Source: a virus
Taxonomy: Duplodnaviria; Heunggongvirae; Uroviricota; Caudoviricetes
Strand: one strand, 5' to 3'
Length of the DNA stretch: 35,266 nucleotides
IMG/VR virus record: IMGVR_UViG_2645727970_000011
Location: 1-35,266 of that record
Part shown: piece by piece, positions 204 to 34,033 of the stretch
Layout: the number at the start of each line of letters is the position of its first letter
How positions within the stretch are numbered: position 1 is the first letter of the stretch
Made by a program: the position numbers and the translations under genes
The notes under the pieces: model-generated
Seen by the model: only the letters and a program-made list of their open reading frames with translations
Told to the model about the DNA's origin: nothing
The model's database searches: none

Positions 204-1172
204 TTAGTAGGTTATTTTTGTTGCGAATACTTCGCCTTTTACGATGGCTGTTATGATATTTTTAGCAACATCTTCTGATGCGCCAACCTTGATAAGGTCA
301 GCAAGTATTTTGTTATTTACTTCTTTCCGGTGAGCTTTATCCTTTGCTCTGCGCTCTTCTTCGTCCTTGATTCTTTTTTCTTCTGCTATTCTGGCTTGCT
401 CTTTTGCTTCAGCCTCGCGCCGGATTCGTTCAGCCTCCTCCTGTGCTTTTCGGCGTTCTGCTTCAATTGCCGCCTGCTTTTCTCTTTCAGCTCGTTCTGC
501 TGCCTCTTTTGCTTCGCGCTGTGCTCGTTGCTCGGCTTCAATGCGTTCACGCTCTGCACGTTCCGCTGCGGCCTTAGCTTCTGCTTCTCGCCTTGCTGCT
601 GCTTCAATTTCGGCTTTTGCCTTTGCTTCGGCTTCTGCTCTGGCTTTCTCTTCAGCTTCTCTTTTTAAGCGTTCTTCATGCTCTCGCTTTTCCTGCTCCG
701 CTTTGAGTCTTGCCTCTTCTCTTTGGCGGTCAAATTCGCGATCCATCAAAATCGCTATTTCATGGTCAGACTCAATTTGCTTTGCGAGAGCTTCAGCTGC
801 TGCCTTAGCTTCTTCTTCGGCTTTAATCCGCGCCTGTTCTTCCTCATAATCAGTAAGAGGCTGGCGCGCCTTGGCTTTCAGTTCATCAAGGCGATCGCGC
901 ACTGTCTTGCGGTTAGCATCAATTAGCTTTGGAATTTCCTTCAGTTCAGCAACAAGGTCTTTACCAAGACCATCGAGATATGTTTTCGTCTGCGCAACTT
1001 TATACGCCAGAGAAGCGATCTCCTTTCTGCCCTTTGCCGTTGTGATATCAGGCACAAAGGACATAACTTCACGTTCAACCTTTTGAAGGATTTCTTCAAT
1101 CTGGTCGGCAGACTGAAATACAGTCATTGCATTTGCTTTTTCAATAACAACTAAATCTGTTACTTCACTCAT
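204..1172 (-). CDS. Hypothetical highly charged coiled-coil protein (322 aa) of the pL operon
   Basis: Track ORF; central ~200 aa is E/A/K/R-rich repeat (AEEKARAEAEAKAKAEIEAAARREAEAKAAAERAERERIEAEQRAQREAKEAAERAEREKQ) between non-repetitive N- and C-terminal domains; GGAGG-type SD upstream of the ATG at 1172. Confidence 0.75.
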   Translation of the reverse strand: MSEVTDLVVIEKANAMTVFQSADQIEEILQKVEREVMSFVPDITTAKGRKEIASLAYKVAQTKTYLDGLGKDLVAELKEIPKLIDANRKTVRDRLDELKAKARQPLTDYEEEQARIKAEEEAKAAAEALAKQIESDHEIAILMDREFDRQREEARLKAEQEKREHEERLKREAEEKARAEAEAKAKAEIEAAARREAEAKAAAERAERERIEAEQRAQREAKEAAERAEREKQAAIEAERRKAQEEAERIRREAEAKEQARIAEEKRIKDEEERRAKDKAHRKEVNNKILADLIKVGASEDVAKNIITAIVKGEVFATKITY

Positions 1173-3224: not shown

Positions 3225-3533
3225 CTATCTCGCCGTAATTGATTTCATTGACCTGTAACCAGCAGCATACAGTGCAACTTCAGGCAAACAAACGCTTCCG
3301 CCATTCGCATCTGTATTTGATTTACTGATGATGCCGAGTGATATTGCTTTTTCAGAAAGACTTAAACGCTTTCTCGGTTCTTCCTGAACAGCTTCCTCAC
3401 TGTCTGTGCCGAAGATCGAATCGATGATGTTGCAGATGGAATCACGCTCGATAGCCAGCTTTCTGCGCCGCTCATGACGGCGAGTTTTGGCATTTCCTGC
3501 AAATGTTGATTTTCCGTACACGATTACCGTCAT
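3225..3533 (-). CDS. N: N-type transcription antiterminator (P22 gene 24-like), 102 aa
   Basis: Internal ATG at 3533 with GAGGA SD 7 nt upstream; arginine-rich motif GNAKTRRHERRRKLAIER matches the P22 N boxB-binding peptide as I recall it; the track ORF extends upstream from a GTG and that N-terminal extension is rejected. Confidence 0.85.
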   Translation of the reverse strand: MTVIVYGKSTFAGNAKTRRHERRRKLAIERDSICNIIDSIFGTDSEEAVQEEPRKRLSLSEKAISLGIISKSNTDANGGSVCLPEVALYAAGYRSMKSITAR

Positions 3534-3652
3534 GATGTTTTCCTCATGTGAAATGGCTTTGGTGGTGATGCGCCAGGTGCTGATCTTCTGGTTGCTGTCG
3601 TTGCAGCTGCAATTCACATCACCGCCAAACCCATCTCGTTTGGTATCTGTTT

Positions 3653-3886: not shown

Positions 3887-4546
3887 TTAACTAAATGTCT
3901 CTTCAGGCCACTGGCTGGCGATAACTTTCCCTACTACGGAACAGCTATCATTGCATGGGATCATTGGATATTGCGGGTTTAGTGGTTGTAGGAACACCTG
4001 ACCGCTATCCCTGATCAGTTTCTTGAAGGTAAACTCGTCACCACCAAGTCTGGCTATGCAGAAATCACCTGGCTCAACAGCCTGCTCAGGGTCAACGAGA
4101 ATTAACATCCCGTCAGGAAAGCTTGGCTTGGATCCTGTTGGTGCGGTCATGGAATTACCTTCAACTTCAAGCCAAAACGCACAATCACTGGCTTTTTTGG
4201 TTGTGCTGACCCATCTCTCCGCATCGCCTTTGGTAAAGGTTCTAAGCTCAGGCGAGAACATCCCGGCCTGAACATGAGAAAAAACAGGGTACTCATATTG
4301 TTTTTTAACGGGGGCAGATGAGTATTCGCCAACAGGTGAAAATGTACCGTCGTGGTTGAATGAGACGTTATCAATACCAAGGTATTTAAACACCACACCA
4401 ATCTCGTCAAGAGATGGATGACGAGATCCGCGCAACCAGTGACCAATTCCACCCTGCGTCATACCAAGCTCTTCAGCTAACTTCTCTTGAGTTATGCCGA
4501 GTTCTTTCATTCTGGATCTAGCCAGTTCATACCATTTCATTTTCAT
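3887..4546 (-). CDS. cI: CI-type prophage repressor (HTH plus LexA-like S24 autopeptidase domain), 219 aa
   Basis: Start taken at the MKMKW ATG (4546) rather than the longer track ORF; N-terminal HTH ([22 protein letters not shown]), Ala-Gly cleavage site (HVQAGMF), GNSM catalytic serine motif and downstream Lys; divergent from cro. Confidence 0.85.
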
Positions 4547-4657
4547 ATCCTTATTATTACGCTCTGTACTAAAACCATCCATGCACAAGATGTATTTTTT
4601 GTTTGCATTCCAAAAGTACATGTCGTATTATTGTTTCATGGTTACTATGGAGGGCAT
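4547..4657. promoter_or_regulatory. oR/pR/pRM divergent control region
   Basis: Rightward pR candidate: TTGCAT (4603..4608), 17-bp spacer, TATTAT (4626..4631), then GGAGGG SD and cro ATG at 4658; AGTAC-containing operator-like motifs at about 4562..4576 and 4611..4625. pRM not resolved. Confidence 0.6.
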
Positions 4658-25806: not shown

Positions 25807-27138
25807 ATGGCTACGTGGCAACAGGGTATTAATTCTGGTGGTTTTCTGGCTGGCATCGGTACGCAAAATGAGAATGCGCCAAAGGCAAGCGACATTAACG
25901 CAACGCTTGGTCTGATCCGCGAAAACAATGAACTGGCTCGCTCAGGTGCAAATAACGTTGGCCTGACCGCGTTACGTGGTCTGGCTGGAGTTGCTGATAT
26001 TTACAATCAGGAACAGCAACAGAAAGCGATTAGTGCATTCAATAAGGTTCACGCTGATGCATGGGCTTCTGGTGATCCATCGGGACTATTTAAGTTTGCC
26101 CAGGAAAATCCAGCGTTTGTTGCACAGGCACAACAGGCGTTTTCCGGTCTTAATGAGCAGCAACGCAACGATATGGGCGATTTAGCCATGAGGGCTAACG
26201 TCGCTCTTTCTCAGGGACCGGAAGCCTACAGTAAATTCATTACTGACAACAAGGACAGGTTAAATCGCGTTGGTGCTAATGCTGACTGGATGATTCAGAC
26301 AGGTATCCAGAATCCAGAGCAGCTATCACACATGCTGACTACTATGACGCTAGGGGCTGTTGGTCCGGATAAAATGCTGGATTATCAGGATAAGATGGTT
26401 GGTCGCCAACTTGAGAAAGGGAGATTGGATGAAAGCATCCGTCAGGCTGACATGGAGAACGCGAGAGGATGGGCAAATATCCAAAACGCTCAACTAGACA
26501 GGGCTCAGCGGGCACAAATGCATAATGATAACGTAGCCCTGAAGTTGCAGGAATTAGGGATGAAACAACAGGAAAGCGGAAAGATTGACCCAAAACTTGT
26601 TCGAGATCTGAATAGTGATATTAATGGGTTCTCAAAGAATTATTCTGCAATGCGCAGTGCTTCTGACAACCTACAAGCCCTTGGGAAGCGCAACACTCCA
26701 GCCGCGCAGTTGGGAATGATTTTCAACTATATGAAATCGTTGGATCCGCAATCTGTGGTACGCGAAGGTGAGCAAGTGCAGGTAAAACGCACTGATGGAA
26801 TATTCGGCACACTTGGTAACTATGTTAGCCAATTATCTAACGGCAAGATGCTGAATAATGAGCAAGTCCAGGACTTAATCAACACCTCAAAACTGATGGC
26901 AAATACTGAAGGCGAAAAGTTTAACCAGCAAATGGATGATTATCTTTCAACTTATGGAGATTCTCTCCCCAGCGGACTAACTAAGCAATTGCAATCCAGA
27001 AAAGCCAAGCTGTATGAAGATATTCAGCAGCCTGCGCAACAACAGAGCAATAACCAACAACCGACAGATACCCAACAGCAGCAGAGTCAATCCGGATCAT
27101 ATACCTCAAAATCAGGCATTCAATTTACGGTGGAATGA
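25807..27138 (+). CDS. Ejection protein, gp20-like (443 aa)
   Basis: Synteny and size; Gln-rich C-terminus. Confidence 0.65.
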
Positions 27139-29261
27139 TGAAAGTAACTGCAAACGGAAAGACATTTACCTTCCCTGATGGTACGAGCACGGAAGATATT
27201 GGCACCGCCATTGATGAGTATTTTGCTGGTCAGGCTGTTCAGCAACAAACAGTTAATCAGGCCAATAATGAACCAGCACGTGAAGAACCATCATTGATGC
27301 AACAAGCTGGCGATTGGTTCACTGGTGGTCAAAGTGCAGGGCAAATTGCAGAACAGGCTGGTCGTGGTCTGGTAAACATACCATTTGACGTATTGCAGGG
27401 TGGCGCAAGTCTGATTAATGCAATCAGTCAGGGGCTTGGTGGGCCCAAGGTTTTGGATGATGTCTATCGTCCAGTCGATCGACCGACAGACCCTTACGCG
27501 CAAGCCGGTGAAACAATTGGTGGGTATCTCCTGCCAATTGGCACAGCGGCAAAAGCTGCTGGAGCGCCAGCAAAGCTCGCTGGAGATATCGGTTCCGCAG
27601 GAAACATGATTGCAGGTTCTCTTGCTGATGCTGCAAATCAGGAGGGCGATTTTGCACAAAATGCCGCCATTAACGGTGGTATCAATATTGGTGCTCAAGG
27701 CGTTCTTTCAGGTGTTGGGCGCGTTATTGCGCCAAGGGTTTCACAGGCTCTTGGTGGTGCAGCACTGAATTCTGCTAATGATGTTTCCAGGATGGCAAAG
27801 TCAGGTGCTGGGCGTCAGTCAATTGCCAGTCAGGCCGCTAATGTGTCCGAAGATGTAGCAAAAGCGGCTGAGTCTGCTGGAGTTGATATAAACGCATTAA
27901 CACCAGGAATGCGATCTGGAAGTCGTGGAATTGCACAAGCCGAAGGCGCATTGGCATCAACACCAGGAATTGTTCAGGATGCCCATCAGGCAGCATTTAA
28001 CGAAATATCATCAAAGTTAAGTCGAAACCTTGATGAATTTGGGGCCGCATCTGGAACGGCATCAGAAAAAAGTGCGGCTATAAAACAAAGGATTCTTCAA
28101 AATCTTGATCAGATGAAGGATGCTGAGCGCGCGGCATGGGATGACGTGCGGTCAACAATGCCAAATCAAAAAGCAAGAATGCTAAATGGTAATGCCGTTA
28201 TTCAGGCAGAGCGATCTGCTGGCATACCGCTTACTCCTGAAATGAAACAGTTTGTTCAGGCAAACAATCAAGGTGGAGTAACATTTGATGGCATGAAAGC
28301 ATGGAGAGCGAAATTTGCTGATGCGGAGCAAAAATATAAGCGTAGCGGAGAGGCAAATGCGGCAAGGAGAGCAGGGGAAATACGTCGGGCAATTACTGAT
28401 GATATGCGCACAATGGCGGAAAACGGCGGATTTTTTGATGACTGGCAAAAAGCTAATGATCTGTCTAAAGCGAGGCTATCCGCACAAGAGAGTGCAGAAT
28501 CTGTTTTTGGGCGTGATTTGGCAACAGATGCACTGATTACGAATGGAGTAAAATCTCTTCAATCATCGTCAGCTAAAGGTCTTAATGGTCCTGCTGGATT
28601 CCATTCTATGATCCGCGCGCTGCCAGAATCAGAGCGTGTTCCTGCTATATCATCAATGTTGCAGGATGCTATCTCGCATGGTGTACGTGGCGGCAAATCT
28701 GATGCAGCAGGAATTAACCATATCGCAGGGATACTTACCCCACAAAATGTAAAAGCCATTAGCAGATATTCCTCAGAACTCGGAAGAATTGCTGATGCAT
28801 ATGGCACTCTTGCAAGAGCAGCAGTGAAACCTCAGCAGTATATTGAAAGAACAGGGAGAACTGCCAATGTACTACGCGATCTGGATGCTGGTTTATCCAA
28901 CGTCACATCAACAGTGTTAAATGCAATTGCCAACTCAACATCAGGTGCCATTGTTGGTGGCGCTGGAGGGGGCATTGCAGGCGCTGCCGCGGGTGCTTTA
29001 GTTGGCGCTGGGTTAAAAGGAGCTGTATCTAAAATTGCCACCACACGTAGTGGTCGATATGCGATAGAGAAAGCTGTTCAGGAAGCCACCAAAGCAGTAA
29101 GAGCAGGCGGAAGCAAAGAAGCTTTAGCGGCGGCGGAACGCAGATTTATGGCAAATAAGGCCGCCGTAAAAGCAATACGTGATACAGTCGGAAACGAAGA
29201 GTTTCAGCGCTTAGCGAGGGCCGGTATTGTGGCATCGCTAAGCGGAATGGCACAGGAGTAA
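27135..29261 (+). CDS. Ejection protein, gp16-like (708 aa)
   Basis: Synteny and size; last gene of the rightward late operon before the leftward cargo genes. Confidence 0.65.
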
Positions 29262-29594
29262 TTAATCATCCATGGATGGATTGAGCTTATCTCGTGTTGA
29301 TGTGGCGGTTTTCCCTACATTCCTAAGCCAAGCTTTCAAATCCTTGATATTGTCATTGATTTCATGAATATCTTCTTTTTTTAATCTGTCAATATTATTT
29401 TCAATAATTTCAATGGATTGCTCAATATCAGATATAGTGAATGATAGTTTGCTCTTCTCATCTGTTATTGAGTTTTTAAGTGCTTCGTTCTCAGTCTTGA
29501 GGTCAGATATCTTTTGCTTTAAAGATGCCAGTTGGCACTGAACCACAATGAGTGCGATAGCTATCACGACAAATGTTGTATACACGCTAACCAC
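29262..29594 (-). CDS. Small membrane-anchored coiled-coil protein: N-terminal transmembrane helix then coiled coil (107-110 aa)
   Basis: Track ORF starts at GTG 29594; a second GTG at 29585 has an AAGGTGG SD 5 nt upstream; hydrophobic N-terminus YTTFVVIAIALIVVQ then heptad-rich segment; AT-rich. Confidence 0.6.
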   Translation of the reverse strand: MVSVYTTFVVIAIALIVVQCQLASLKQKISDLKTENEALKNSITDEKSKLSFTISDIEQSIEIIENNIDRLKKEDIHEINDNIKDLKAWLRNVGKTATSTRDKLNPSMDD

Positions 29595-29605
29595 CTTGGT
29601 TTTAT

Positions 29606-29854
29606 CTACTTGAGGACTAATCCGTTAAGTGCATCAAGGATTTTAGATACGTAACTACCGAAAATGTAGGTGCAAAAAGCAAAAACAACCGTGACGACAG
29701 CACCGATAGCCTTAATGGTTGTTTTCATTGTGGTGATACTAGTTTCAATACTGCTAAGCCTGGTGTCAATTGACTTCACGTCTTTTTGAATGATTTCAAT
29801 GTCACGCTTGATATAGCTGACATCAGACTCTAACTTTGCGACCCTTGATTCCAT
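29606..29854 (-). CDS. Small tail-anchored coiled-coil protein, XhlA-like architecture (82 aa)
   Basis: ATG at 29854 has an AAGGAGG SD 7 nt upstream, whereas the longer track ORF start at 29959 has none; coiled coil (VAKLESDVSYIKRDIEIIQKDVKSIDTRLSSIETSITTMK) followed by C-terminal transmembrane helix AIGAVVTVVFAFCTYIFGSYV. Confidence 0.6.
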   Translation of the reverse strand: MESRVAKLESDVSYIKRDIEIIQKDVKSIDTRLSSIETSITTMKTTIKAIGAVVTVVFAFCTYIFGSYVSKILDALNGLVLK

Positions 29855-29951
29855 GCCATCGCCTCCTTCGCCTCCAGACCTGTTCTTATCCTTTGTGTTC
29901 TCAGGATGGATACGAGATATGTTTTTTTCACTAATTGATGTTTCAATTATA

Positions 29952-30362
29952 TCAAGCATCTTTCACATGACTCACGGAAAAGTAGGCTTGCGCAGAATGC
30001 ACTAGAGTGTTGTCTTTGCTGATGGATACTCGAATTAAGTAATCCCCGTCAGCATCAAGTTTGCATTTATCGAAATGCATAGACATCGATGTTGCCAAGG
30101 TGTTCCTGATCTCATTGTGTCCTTTTGCCTTAATCCACACGCCTTTATCACCGCTTACACTGATTTCTAACTCATTCTCGATTCTATAGAGACAAGCTGA
30201 AACCCAATATGGTGTATCATGAATTAAACCGAGAAAGTGAACCTGAAAATCAAGGTCAGTAGTCACAGGTAACTCATCTGTCTCCATGATTAACATGGGT
30301 GATTTTTCATCATTTTCAGACTTATGGTAAGGAAAAAGGAATGCTATTTTTTCAGTGTTCAT
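29952..30362 (-). CDS. Hypothetical soluble protein (136 aa), first cargo gene downstream of mnt
   Basis: ATG overlaps the mnt stop (ATGA); AT-rich; no recognised family. Confidence 0.6.
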   Translation of the reverse strand: MNTEKIAFLFPYHKSENDEKSPMLIMETDELPVTTDLDFQVHFLGLIHDTPYWVSACLYRIENELEISVSGDKGVWIKAKGHNEIRNTLATSMSMHFDKCKLDADGDYLIRVSISKDNTLVHSAQAYFSVSHVKDA

Positions 30363-30601
30363 TTCCCATCCCTTAAACGTTTAAGTACATTGATGGTTAC
30401 ATCAAGAGCCTCTTGCTCTGACTTTGCCAGTTGCTGACTGCTTGATGGTATAACCTGCTCTTTATGCATTTTTATCCACAACTGGATAGCAGCAATAATC
30501 TCAGCATTGATAGAGCGTCGATTAGTGGCAGCAATATGCGTAAGTTGCTGTTTTATCTCATCTGGCATTCTTACGTTGAATTGCGGATCATTTCTAGCCA
30601 C
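30359..30601 (-). CDS. mnt: Mnt-like ribbon-helix-helix repressor (80 aa)
   Basis: GTG start with AGGAG SD 6 nt upstream; N-terminus MARNDPQFNVRMPDEIKQQL ... NRRSINAEIIAAIQ resembles P22 Mnt as I recall it; divergent from arc. Confidence 0.75.
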   Translation of the reverse strand: MARNDPQFNVRMPDEIKQQLTHIAATNRRSINAEIIAAIQLWIKMHKEQVIPSSSQQLAKSEQEALDVTINVLKRLRDGK

Positions 30602-30694
30602 GTCATTCTCCTTTTATTTATTGACATGCTAGAACGGTAGTAGTACGCTTTCAATAGTAGTACGGTGCTATCATTTAATGAAATGGAGTTGAAT
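30602..30694. promoter_or_regulatory. immI control region: Pant-like promoter with Arc-operator-like sequence and tandem direct repeats
   Basis: TTGACA (30621..30626) followed by ATGCTAGAAC, resembling the P22 Pant -35 and Oarc left half; direct repeat TAGTAGTACG at 30641..30650 and 30658..30667; sequence ATAGTAGTACGGTGCTATCAT at 30654..30674; GGAG SD before arc. Confidence 0.55.
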
Positions 30695-30856
30695 ATGCAA
30701 GGTGCAAGAAAAATGCCGCAGTTCAATTTGCGGTGGCCTAAAGAAGTATTGGATTTGGTACGCAAGGTGGCGGAAGAGAATGGTAGGTCTGTTAATTCTG
30801 AGATTTATCAGCGAGTAATGGAAAGCTTTAAGAAGGAAGGGCGCATTGGTGCGTAA
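30695..30856 (+). CDS. arc: Arc repressor (53 aa)
   Basis: [53 protein letters not shown] is near-identical to P22 Arc as I recall it; ATG at 30695 (track ORF starts at an upstream GTG). Confidence 0.9.
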
Positions 30857-30924
30857 AGTTGAAGCCCCAACTGCGGGAACAGTCAGGGCTTCGGTATCAA
30901 CAAATCGGATTAGGAAATATTGAC

Positions 30925-31803
30925 ATGAAAAGTATAGCAAAGGCACAAAACGATTTCACCATCTTCAAATTCGGCGACAGTGAAATCCGCGTCATCAACA
31001 AATGCGGTGAGCCGTGGTTTGTAGCAAAAGATGTTTGTGATGCTTTAACCCTGACTAACTCACGCAAGGCGCTTACTGCACTTGATGACGATGAAAAGGG
31101 AGTAACTTTAAGTTACACCCTTGGTGGTGAGCAGAATCTAAGCATTGTTAGCGAATCAGGTATGTATACATTGGTTCTGCGCTGCCGCGATGCTGTCAAT
31201 AAAGGTTCATTACCGCACAAATTCCGCAAGTGGGTAACAGCAGAAGTTCTGCCTTCAATTCGCAAACATGGCGAGTATGTGAAAGGCAAGAAAACCACTG
31301 TTGAGGAAAGAACACCGCTACGAGATGCAGTAAACATGCTGGTAGGAAAGAAAGGACTTCGCTATGACGATGCATACAATATGGTTCATCAGCGTTTTGG
31401 TATTGACAGCATTGATGAACTTTCAATTGAACAAATCCCGCTGGCCGTAGAGTACATCCACAGGGTAGTGCTTGAAGGTGAATTCATCGGAAAACAAGAG
31501 AAGAAAACCAACGAGCTTTCTGCAAAAGAAGCAAACAGTCTTGTATGGTTATGGGATTATGCCAACCGCTCACAGGCATTATTCCGCGAACTGTATCCGG
31601 CATTAAAACAAATTCAATCGAACTATTCCGGCAGATGCTACGACTATGGTCATGAGTTCTCGTATGTTATCGGAATGGCGAGAGACGTTTTAATCAATCA
31701 CACACGAGATGTTGATATCAATGAGCCAGACGGACCAACGAATCTTTCCGCATGGATGAGACTTAAGAATAAAGAATTACCTCCTTCAGTACATAACTAC
31801 TGA
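30925..31803 (+). CDS. ant: Antirepressor Ant with Bro-N/AntA-type N-terminal domain (~292 aa)
   Basis: ATG at 30925 with AGGA SD (track ORF starts at TTG 30859); N-terminal [30 protein letters not shown] is a Bro-N/AntA-type signature; position after arc as in P22. Confidence 0.75.
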
Positions 31804-31903: not shown

Positions 31904-34033
31904 ATGACAGACATTACAGCCAATGTGATCGTATCAATGCCTTCGCAACTCTTCACTATGGCACGTTCTTTTAAAGCCGTAGCCAATGGTAAAATTTATA
32001 TCGGAAAAATTGACACTGATCCGGTAAATCCTGAAAACCGGATTCAGGTTTATGTGGAGAACGAAGATGGTTCTCACGTTCCTGTTTCGCAACCAATCAT
32101 CATTAACGCTGCCGGATATCCGGTATATAACGGACAGATTGCCAAATTCGTTACCGTGCAAGGCCATTCTATGGCTGTTTATGATGCATATGGTGCGCAG
32201 CAGTTTTATTTTCCTAATGTGTTGAAGTATGATCCTGATCAGTTTAGTTTGAAGCTATCCATGCCTGATGGGGCAGGTGAAATTGGATATCAATATAGAA
32301 ATAATGTTACATCTTCTTACCGAAGAGTAAACGACAAGCTTGATGAGCATGTCAGTATTCTGGATTTTCATAGAAATGTTGATGGTGGGTTAATCCTTCC
32401 TGCACAGAATGTTGATAGTAGACCATTCTTTGAGCGAGCACTTGTATACATTGAATCAATAGGCGGTGGCACTATTTATGTACCGGCTGGAAAATACTAT
32501 TTAAATTCATACAGTGAAATAGGGATCATAGGCACTGTCTTTAATGCAATATTGCCACTTTGCGATAATGTTAAAATTTTATTGGATACAGCGGCAGAAA
32601 TAGTTGTTGGTACTTTTTTTGATGACAAGCCTTTCCAGTTGTTTTTTGGTTCTTCGCCTTTGAAACCAAATCTTGTAGACGCTGTAAATAATGTTGTCAT
32701 AGAAGGTGGTACAATTAGCTTTAGTGGTTATAGCAGTATGATGAGAACAGCACCACTAAACAGAATTGCATTGCAGACAGGAAATATAGATAATCTTCGC
32801 ATATCAAATGTTACCTTTCGTGATGGTGACTTAACAAACGCTTTAGCGATAGGATACAAAAATCTAGGCAAATATGCAGTTGTTGAGAATTGCAACTTTA
32901 TTGACCTTATTCAGAACGGAATGAATAACGATCATAGTAGTATCTACCTTAATGCGTCATACTCTACAATTAATAATTGCAACTTTATTTCCACGATAGA
33001 TAAAGGAAGGAAGATCGCTTGTGCTGTTGAGTTGCATAAATCTTTCAATAGTTGGATTGGTGGTAATGTTGATGGCTATACACGTGGTGCTTTTATAAAC
33101 GCTATTGATACTGAATCATCTCTTGTAGAAAACACCAGAATTGAATCAGTTACCGCTAGAATACTACACCAGTTTGTAGCGTACTCGTTCGGTTCTAATG
33201 GGGTTATAAGAAATAGTCTTGTTTCAGGAAATAATGTAACAACTCTTGCGAGAAGTTCATCCGATACAGATCCTTCAGAATTTGGACCTTGCAGTCTCTG
33301 CGGTTGGGTGTCATATGGTAGTTTTGCAAATGCAGAAGGCCTAAATATCGTAGTTGAAAATAATACATACATTGTTGATGAATCAGTACAAGATTCATAT
33401 AGTTGCGTATTTTATGCAATCGCAAATGTTTCAGGTGTTACTGTTCGTAGAAACAGTGTTGGAGCGAGAACTTTTTTCTACAACCCAACCCCATCACTAA
33501 ATCTTTACAATTGCCATTTTTATGAAAACAGGTTTGAGGAATCGTATGTACAGAGCGGTTCAGAAAGATTTTTATATGATCTTAACTGTAATCGTATTTC
33601 TCAAAGCACTTTCGAAGCATTTGTTCCAATAAAAACAACTGCACTGACAGGAGTTATGAGGATTGACCCATCTACGCTCGGTCCGCAGAATCGTTTTGTT
33701 GTCGATACTCAGAATACAGATAATATTGAACACCCATTTATTACAAATTTGCCAGGTTTGCTCGGGCAGGATGGTACAACTTACTCATATCCGCAAAAAT
33801 GCGATGTCAACATCGGAGTTGGTTCTACACCTGTCCTATCTGTGATAAGTCCGGAAATAAGCACTGTAGACAGAGGACAGATTCTTAACAACGCGAACCT
33901 TCCATCTGGTTATGTCGCTCCGTCGTCGTTAATGAAGTACGATTCTACGCTTACAGGAGCTGGTGTCACAGTATCAGGGACGCCATCCGGTAATTATCAT
34001 GACGTGAGGATTCTACTGATAAGAGAACGTTAG
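31904..34033 (+). CDS. Tailspike: P22/HK620-type head-binding N-terminal domain plus divergent receptor-binding domain (709 aa)
   Basis: N-terminal ~115 aa ([64 protein letters not shown]...VLKYDPDQF) match the conserved tailspike head-binding domain from memory; the remainder is AT-rich and unrelated to the P22 sequence I recall. Confidence 0.85.

Follow-up and report, generated by a model that had tools for sequence, protein, structure and literature searches.

The stretch analysed here, called the window throughout, is the viral record IMGVR_UViG_2645727970_000011 over its full 35,266 nucleotides (nt), a P22-like (Lederbergvirus-type) prophage of Escherichia coli. We examined the block at 29262-30601, in which four leftward genes lie closely packed: mnt, a gene for a soluble protein of 136 amino acids (aa), a gene for a membrane protein of 117 or 82 aa, and a 107-aa gene, hkcB. 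Comparison with other phages and prophages separated the two middle genes from hkcB, and these two very probably form a repressor-linked accessory module that is expressed in lysogens. The features of the block are as follows.

30359-30601, minus strand: mnt, 80 aa, Arc/Mnt ribbon-helix-helix repressor of immI (Pfam Arc PF03869)
29952-30362, minus strand: 136-aa protein, cytoplasmic, acidic, all-beta (immunoglobulin-like, Ig-like, sandwich); putative sensor or regulator
29606-29959, minus strand: 117-aa long form, tail-anchored coiled-coil membrane protein, XhlA-like (phrog_6136, E 1e-37)
29606-29854, minus strand: 82-aa putative short form, same frame from an internal ATG (Met36), with AAGGAGG at 29868-29862, 7 nt upstream
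29604-30365, minus strand: two-gene cassette of 762 bp, exactly the 136-aa and 117-aa genes; its limits are homology breakpoints
29262-29585, minus strand: hkcB, 107 aa from GTG 29585 (110 aa from GTG 29594)
30626-30654, minus strand: Pmnt-like sigma-70 promoter, TTGAAA-17-TAGCAT, from a consensus scan, just upstream of mnt

The mnt stop and the start of the 136-aa gene share bases in the sequence ATGA, 8 nt are common to the 136-aa and 117-aa open reading frames (ORFs), and a gap of 11-20 nt lies between the 117-aa stop and the next start. On the minus strand, no terminator-like hairpin was found from mnt through hkcB or over the 1.2 kb beyond. An earlier interpretation of this DNA, the sequence-only reading, had described leftward genes packed behind mnt, and the overlapping or near-abutting frames and the lack of an internal terminator bear this out. 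The Pmnt-like site agrees in position with the Pmnt/Pant annotation in epsilon34 and is the presumed start of the leftward mnt operon. The mnt product matched Pfam Arc PF03869 at 49.2 bits (E 4.8e-13), above the gathering cut-off of 20.4, and the gene showed about 88% nucleotide identity to mnt of phages Emek and epsilon34.

All three cargo proteins matched phage families of unknown function, phrog_5962 (HkcB), phrog_6136 (117 aa) and phrog_5893 (136 aa), with E-values of 3e-57, 1e-37 and 5e-51, respectively. Against the Salmonella copy, the ratio of nonsynonymous to synonymous substitution rates (dN/dS) was 0.11 for the 136-aa gene and 0.10 for the 117-aa gene, values which indicate that both cassette genes are under purifying selection. 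The family matches and the dN/dS of about 0.1 for the two cassette genes together show that the cargo ORFs are real genes. The GC content of the block was 0.388 compared to a window mean of 0.470 (sd 0.040, 1340-nt windows), which places it at the 4.4th percentile. With a GC content of 0.386 the tailspike gene on the right is no less AT-rich, and the contrast is confined to the ejection genes on the left. The earlier claim that the block is more AT-rich than its structural neighbours thus held for the left flank and failed for the tailspike.

A prophage of E. coli 266917_2 matched positions 29100-30800 from end to end at 99.2% identity, and all other matches were partial. Within this query SEN22 and CUS-3 matched positions 1-504 and 1-502, and Emek matched 1267-1701: similarity to hkcB-bearing phages stops at about 29603, and similarity to the mnt of other phages starts at about 30366. 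The interval between these breakpoints holds the cassette. Among 5,426 complete E. coli genomes, the cassette was present in 16 (at DNA-level sensitivity) and the full block in one, and hkcB was found in 155, at full length in 72 and in most cases unaccompanied by the cassette genes. In Salmonella, the cassette is followed by an unrelated 62-aa ORF with two transmembrane (TM) segments in place of hkcB. This distribution, and the replacement in Salmonella, show hkcB to be an independent cargo outside the two-gene unit. The single three-gene cassette of the sequence-only reading therefore has to be given up, with hkcB in 155 genomes against one for the block. The same distribution rules out a complementary pair made of the two membrane coiled-coil proteins, a candidate that was considered and rejected; the conserved pair is the 136-aa soluble protein and the tail-anchored protein. 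We describe the block as the leftward mnt operon of immI (part of the 'ant moron'), with two separate cargoes.

Linkage to prophage repressors

Relatives of the cassette were compared at 91 loci, drawn from 80 viral contigs that encode relatives of the membrane protein and from genomic loci. In essentially every locus a partner ORF precedes the XhlA-like gene at a distance of -56 to +12 nt, and the two are translationally coupled. One gene further upstream, a repressor is encoded in at least 47 of the 55 distinct contexts; the 55 distinct proteins included 30 of the Peptidase_S24 (CI/LexA) type, 11 short Phage_CI_repr proteins and six Arc/Mnt proteins. The position directly behind a prophage maintenance repressor suggests that the cassette is built for expression in lysogens.

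In lambdoid prophages of E. coli and Salmonella the gene order was cI, a partner of 145 or 156 aa, a 123-aa membrane protein, and N. One such copy is in the enteropathogenic E. coli (EPEC) strain O127:H6 E2348/69 (E2348C_RS13565/13570/13575; locus L101, 2130-3646), which encodes a LexA-family repressor followed by proteins of 145 and 123 aa. The cI and N flanks were 98.8% identical to those of HK97, mEp234 and HK106, and the cargo between them alone differed: hicAB in mEp234 and HK106, and gp48/49 in HK97. This cI-N mosaic hotspot holds rexAB in lambda, whose slot the cI-linked cassette copies therefore share, and bstA in BTP1 (PMC8585504). Owen et al. attributed the significance of the slot to the repressor promoter, which is among the most active in lysogens (PMC8585504). 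The Mnt-linked cassette was also found in Salmonella P22-like prophages, and the pair of Mnt and 136-aa protein in a long-tailed Leclercia prophage.

The sequence-only reading had counted the ribbon-helix-helix regulator as a part of the module. The regulator is the phage's own Mnt, and elsewhere the cassette stands behind CI-type repressors, so this part of the claim did not survive. For the same reason, namely that CI-type repressors precede the cassette in most loci, we rejected Mnt as a dedicated module regulator and as a ribbon-helix-helix antitoxin of the toxin-antitoxin kind.

Several loci show further arrangements. The cultured Enterobacter phage ENT1 (PV358077; locus L018, 2804-4249) carries cI, a 127-aa zinc-ribbon protein and a 109-aa XhlA-like protein; its partner belongs to a second partner family, phrog_4293, and ENT1 could serve as an experimental system. 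At locus L073 (1022-1761), in an atypical context, an AraC-type regulator and no phage repressor precedes two tandem genes for XhlA-like tail-anchored coiled-coil proteins (99 and 136 aa). At L007 (8745-9413) and at L069-L071, the cassette lies beside a DUF6246 gene in the tail region of long-tailed prophages, away from immC, which suggests a third insertion site.

The membrane protein and its soluble partners

Hydropathy and heptad analysis supported the membrane topology and coiled coils that had been predicted from the translations: the 136-aa protein is soluble, with no TM segment, the middle gene encodes a tail-anchored coiled coil, and HkcB has an N-terminal anchor (TM at 4-22) followed by a coiled coil. 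In the 117-aa protein, 8 of 8 heptad a/d positions fit from about residue 34, and the TM segment lies at 82-100. An AlphaFold2 model gave residues 1-34 as disordered and residues 35-116 as one continuous helix. Neither cassette protein has a signal peptide or secretion signal.

About 70 relatives of the 117-aa protein were found in Enterobacterales, many of which are named 'hemolysin XhlA' by NCBI. Mnt-linked and cI-linked membrane proteins shared 73% identity over the 82-aa core. Against Pfam XhlA PF10779, the 117-aa protein aligned to profile positions 9-66 of 67 with E 2.4e-5, its score of 24.8 bits fell short of the gathering cut-off of 34.7, and 14 of 22 family members gave weak matches (best E 1.9e-5). 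The annotation 'hemolysin XhlA' for the relatives is unsupported.

In alignment, the family shows a variable N-terminal extension of 18-59 aa, a Gly-rich linker, a near-invariant Met, the conserved motif (M/L)E.RVAKLESDV.YI+RD after this Met, the coiled coil and the TM segment. Three unrelated families of soluble partner were distinguished: the beta-sandwich family, a protein of 110-132 aa with two CxxC pairs, and a protein of 87-113 aa. The beta-sandwich family accounted for 28 of 41 unique partner sequences and includes both the 136-aa protein and the cI-linked 145-aa partner, which are homologous (BLASTP E 1e-11, both phrog_5893). Every extension type was paired with one partner family, and the coiled-coil/TM core was common to all of them. 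This co-variation of extension and partner fits a docking of the partner on the extension.

The 136-aa family is small. It comprised 13 clusters at 90% identity and 18 at 50% among 1.84 billion representatives, and every member, whether from E. coli, Salmonella, Leclercia or a metagenome, was a stand-alone protein of 119-143 aa. No match to the 136-aa protein was found by tblastn in 50,697 phage records, and the family is almost restricted to prophages.

The translation of the membrane protein appears to start at two sites. The long frame was open in every locus, across at least 15 unrelated extension types, and the dN/dS of the N-terminal extension (0.09) was equal to that of the core, which together show that the long form is translated. 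In 25 of 31 unique contexts the conserved internal start codon (ATG, or GTG in two) is preceded by a GGAGG core at a distance of 4-9 nt. From Gly codon usage 13.2 ± 2.6 of 31 would be expected, with a maximum of 24 in 5,000 simulations; GGA made up 56 of the 167 Gly codons of the linkers. The window has AAGGAGG-N7-ATG at this site, and a gene caller picked the internal start in a Salmonella locus (L008). This pattern argues for a conserved second start that would yield the 82-aa core. The 82-aa gene call of the sequence-only reading is thus upheld as a conserved internal start, and is incomplete in that the longer 117-aa frame is conserved and under purifying selection.

A related layout was seen in Leclercia, where a 70-aa ORF can be extended to a 108-aa frame with the same order of Gly linker, Met, coiled coil and TM segment. 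It gave a weak profile match (E 8.5e-4) and no match to the window protein in pairwise BLASTP. This frame may be an analogue, and its homology is uncertain.

Close structural parallels come from lysis proteins of Gram-positive phages. Like the cassette protein, PBSX XhlA and SPP1 gp24.1 have an N-terminal coiled coil and a single C-terminal TM segment within about 80 aa. Both are tail-anchored and holin-like and disrupt membranes only together with a partner (PMC6316719, PMC6834076). The SPP1 gene 24.1, an XhlA homologue, is reported to have an internal in-frame start preceded by a ribosome-binding site, which was read as a dual start of the holin/antiholin type (PMC6316719), and the lytic cassette of PBSX that holds xhlA also encodes the beta-sandwich protein XepA (PMC6834076). 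The pair may accordingly be asked to serve the phage's own life cycle, as a holin accessory and its regulator that modulate induction, the lysogeny-lysis transition or the timing of lysis, and a linkage to the immunity repressor could mirror such regulatory coupling. The genomic context differs, however: XhlA is found with an XhlB-type holin and an endolysin, whereas the neighbours of the cassette are mnt, hkcB and gene 16. In the near-identical prophage the lysis genes (holin, GH24 endolysin and spanin) lie about 15 kb from the cassette, which is transcribed against the late operon. A place behind a maintenance repressor predicts expression when lysis must not occur, and the pair is both rare and dispensable, with close prophages lacking it. 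We consider control of the phage's own cycle quite unlikely.

A role directed at the host was weighed on the same evidence. In one version the pair would stabilise the prophage, as a membrane toxin and its soluble antitoxin; in another it would be an envelope or virulence factor whose benefit to the lysogen has nothing to do with phages. The presence of the hicAB toxin-antitoxin genes in the same cI-N slot of mEp234 and HK106 speaks for such a role, as does the readiness with which small hydrophobic proteins disturb the envelope and trigger stress responses (PMC12704755), and the name given to the relatives would suit a virulence factor. The 'hemolysin' label, however, derives from the title of a Pfam family to which the match is sub-threshold, and neither protein carries a signal for secretion. 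The cassette proteins also showed no similarity to known toxin-antitoxin families, and three unrelated partner families with matched docking extensions would be unusual for antitoxins. Of the explanations weighed here, a host-directed role or addiction seems the least probable.

hkcB and the immI surroundings

The block occupies the slot between gene 16 and the mnt-arc-sar-ant-tailspike genes. In the window ORFs, gene 20 ends at 27138, gene 16 occupies 27135-29261 and the tailspike gene starts at 31904. By annotation, the 266917_2 prophage has the order immC, replication, nin, lysis, terminase-portal-coat, 7/20/16, block, arc, ant and tailspike. The remaining features of immI are as follows.

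30695-30856, plus strand: arc, in the rightward half of immI
about 30925-31803, plus strand: ant, with BRO-N and P22_AR_C domains, in the rightward half of immI
30857-30923, minus strand: sar antisense RNA (Rfam RF00262, 71.6 bits, E 4e-14)

The immI region is complete, with mnt, arc, sar and ant. The sar RNA overlaps the arc-ant junction, and its presence there makes the immI regulatory circuit look intact. Between mnt and arc (30620-30665) lie a direct repeat of GTACTACTA and a sequence, ATGATAGCACCGTACTACTAT, that resembles an Arc operator.

In P22-like phages, the DNA from gene 16 to gene 9 was presented in 2008 as a hypervariable region, the 'ant moron', which occurred in ten types among sixteen genomes; that of P22 contains mnt, arc, sar, ant, sieA and two ORFs of unknown function (PMC2629481). 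In our comparison the interval from gene 16 to mnt differed in content among epsilon34, SEN22, CUS-3, HK620 and several E. coli prophages. The homology breaks and the varying slot contents across the P22-like phages compared agree with the earlier suggestion of mobile, horizontally acquired cargo in the sieA slot.

hkcB is an already named, published ORF of unknown function. The 107-aa form, which starts behind AAGGTGG and is the one annotated by PGAP, is likelier than the 110-aa form. The product matched phrog_5962 over positions 1-109 of 109 (E 2.6e-57) and was 90-97% identical in amino acids to its closest relatives. The gene was 93-95% identical in nucleotides to epsilon34 gene 14, SEN22_15 and CUS-3 hkcB, and it is also present in HK620. 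In the window the stop codons of gene 16 and hkcB abut at 29261/29262, and zero intergenic bases separated them in every phage examined, so that HkcB of HK620, epsilon34 gp14, SEN22_15 and CUS-3 share both family and abutment with the window gene. At this junction no terminator separates the convergent late operon from the leftward genes. The window hkcB differs in having no upstream region of its own: homology to other hkcB loci ends about 10-18 nt upstream of its start, whereas in epsilon34, SEN22 and HK620 the gene stands apart from mnt. Given this break, hkcB must here be transcribed from the mnt operon. HkcB was also considered as an Rz-type i-spanin and rejected: the PHROG matches were weak (E 0.002-0.004) and the gene lies outside the lysis cassette. 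As an independent bitopic membrane coiled-coil protein tied to gene 16, HkcB would most likely be another lysogen-expressed envelope or exclusion factor.

The position beside gene 16 brings SieA into consideration. SieA is an inner-membrane protein that blocks DNA injection and is carried by just 22 of 66 P22-like phages (PMC10883804). Both P22 sieA and the block are leftward, lie beside mnt between gene 16 and the tailspike gene, and encode inner-membrane proteins. HkcB, the XhlA-like protein or both might thus sit in the lysogen inner membrane and block the gp7/gp20/gp16 conduit, so that no DNA enters and the cell survives. Such exclusion would suit a block in the slot of sieA between genes 16 and 9, since phages that lack sieA may use substitutes, and it would suit hkcB, which is joined to the 3' end of gene 16 and co-inherited with it at 93-95% identity; mutations that escape SieA map to genes 16 and 20 (PMC10883804). 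Where hkcB is absent, another small membrane protein takes the third position. SieA is a multi-pass protein with the motif FxRYPxEAxxFNK, whereas the membrane proteins of the block have one hydrophobic segment each; there was no similarity to SieA types A-C, and the motif was absent from all three translated ORFs. The cassette also occurs in phages outside the P22-like group, mostly in lambdoid long-tailed prophages behind cI, where a P22-specific injection block makes little sense. A soluble partner from three interchangeable families is more like a sensor than a component of a passive plug. Exclusion of the SieA type is therefore an unlikely explanation.

Further observations concern the rest of the prophage. 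The immC region of the window has a cI repressor gene (244 aa, 3887-4621, minus strand), whose product resembles the lambda CI C-terminal domain in its C-terminal half, and about 270 nt away an N-like ORF with an Arg-rich motif (3225-3617). No cargo gene was found in the interval between them. The 266917_2 prophage has a 122-aa ORF (WP_000233126.1) directly downstream of its LexA-family repressor. No part of the window is richer in AT than the tailspike gene (31904-34033, 709 aa; GC 0.35-0.39), and the tailspike itself is unlike the 883-aa tailspike of the otherwise 99%-identical 266917_2 prophage, which indicates a swap of the receptor-binding module. A 322-aa ORF in the early-left region (204-1172, minus strand) encodes a very long, highly charged helical stretch rich in Ala, Glu, Lys and Arg (AEAKAKAEIEAAARREAEAK...).

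Possible function in lysogens

A lysogen-expressed exclusion or abortive-infection role fits the cassette better than a virion role because the core lies directly behind a repressor in most contexts. From its position and architecture, the cassette may well be a Rex-like module of this kind, a reading that we favour tentatively. Lambda RexA/RexB, an abortive-infection pair whose genes are co-transcribed with cI, provide the nearest model: as in the cassette, a soluble protein and then an inner-membrane protein are encoded directly downstream of the prophage repressor. RexB crosses the membrane several times, and RexA is roughly twice as large as the cassette's soluble protein. Unlike RexAB, the cassette encodes a single-pass tail-anchored coiled coil with a probable dual start, and its soluble partner comes from three interchangeable families. 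BstA, which mediates abortive infection from prophages, is one large protein that associates with DNA and has a cognate aba element for self-immunity; it has no similarity to the cassette in sequence or architecture.

If the cassette acts in a Rex-like manner, the 136-aa cytoplasmic beta-sandwich protein would be a sensor or regulator and would bind the membrane protein at the latter's disordered, family-specific extension. On a signal given by an infecting phage the coiled-coil/TM core would oligomerise, the inner membrane would be permeabilised, depolarised or obstructed, and the infection would be aborted or excluded. The short isoform without the docking extension would tune the system, as antiholin/holin pairs do. 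In P22, Pmnt is the lysogenic promoter of immI, and Arc turns it off in lytic growth. Once the prophage itself enters lytic growth, Arc and antisense rightward late transcription would silence the operon; late transcription towards the tailspike gene runs antisense through the block region (PMC2629481).

A broader and more speculative possibility, to which we give less credence, is that the family as a whole is a plug-and-play analogue of Rex behind both cI (immC) and mnt (immI) maintenance repressors. It would combine a holin-like effector in two isoforms with interchangeable cytoplasmic sensors (the Ig-like beta-sandwich, the zinc-ribbon and an 89-aa protein) and their matching docking extensions, and possibly it is the XepA-XhlA lysis pair known from Gram-positive phages, put to a new use in lysogeny.

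Database searches placed the cassette in no known system. With the window proteins and the alternative partners as queries, PADLOC-DB v2.0 returned coiled-coil noise alone (JetC, LmuB and CorA-like, E of at least 1e-4), in line with the sequence-only reading, which could name no defence family. Pfam and NCBIfam gave no match for the 136-aa protein and sub-threshold coiled-coil families for both membrane proteins, and PDB sequence searches with both cassette family profiles returned nothing significant. Cargo behind a prophage repressor, soluble-plus-membrane pairs, the variability of the slot and hkcB were already known. The cassette itself, its near-obligate repressor linkage, the matched partners and the dual start were not found in the searched defence databases or literature.

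Several observations weigh against a Rex-like exclusion module. Expression in lysogens from Pmnt is assumed from what is known of P22. Genes carried behind repressors need not serve defence: hicAB encodes a toxin-antitoxin system, and RexAB has an effect on the lysogeny-lysis switch as well. No repressor lies upstream in about 15% of the contexts (DUF6246, AraC and others in its place), and RexA and RexB showed no sequence similarity to the cassette proteins in PADLOC, Pfam or NCBIfam. The sub-threshold XhlA match could mirror coiled-coil and TM composition alone, and the co-variation of extension and partner may be mere linkage of adjacent DNA without co-evolution. The baseline for GGAGG is high in a Gly-rich linker (13 of 31), and the contexts are phylogenetically related. 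In the literature, no functional study of hkcB, the cassette proteins or their families was found.

Few markers of phage-versus-phage immunity are as reliable as repressor-linked genes such as rexAB, bstA and sieB-type loci, and the mechanism of Rex is still unclear after 60 years. The cassette is a much smaller system, of 136 and 117 residues, whose parts appear to be an exchangeable sensor, a tail on which it docks, a conserved membrane helix and two start sites. Its copy in the model EPEC strain E2348/69 makes it directly testable. If the cassette is defensive, it would represent a new type of effector for prophage immunity, a single-pass holin-like coiled coil, and the P22 immI operon would be a second repressor-linked defence slot beside cI-N. 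It would also suggest a route by which lysis proteins are redeployed as abortive-infection effectors.

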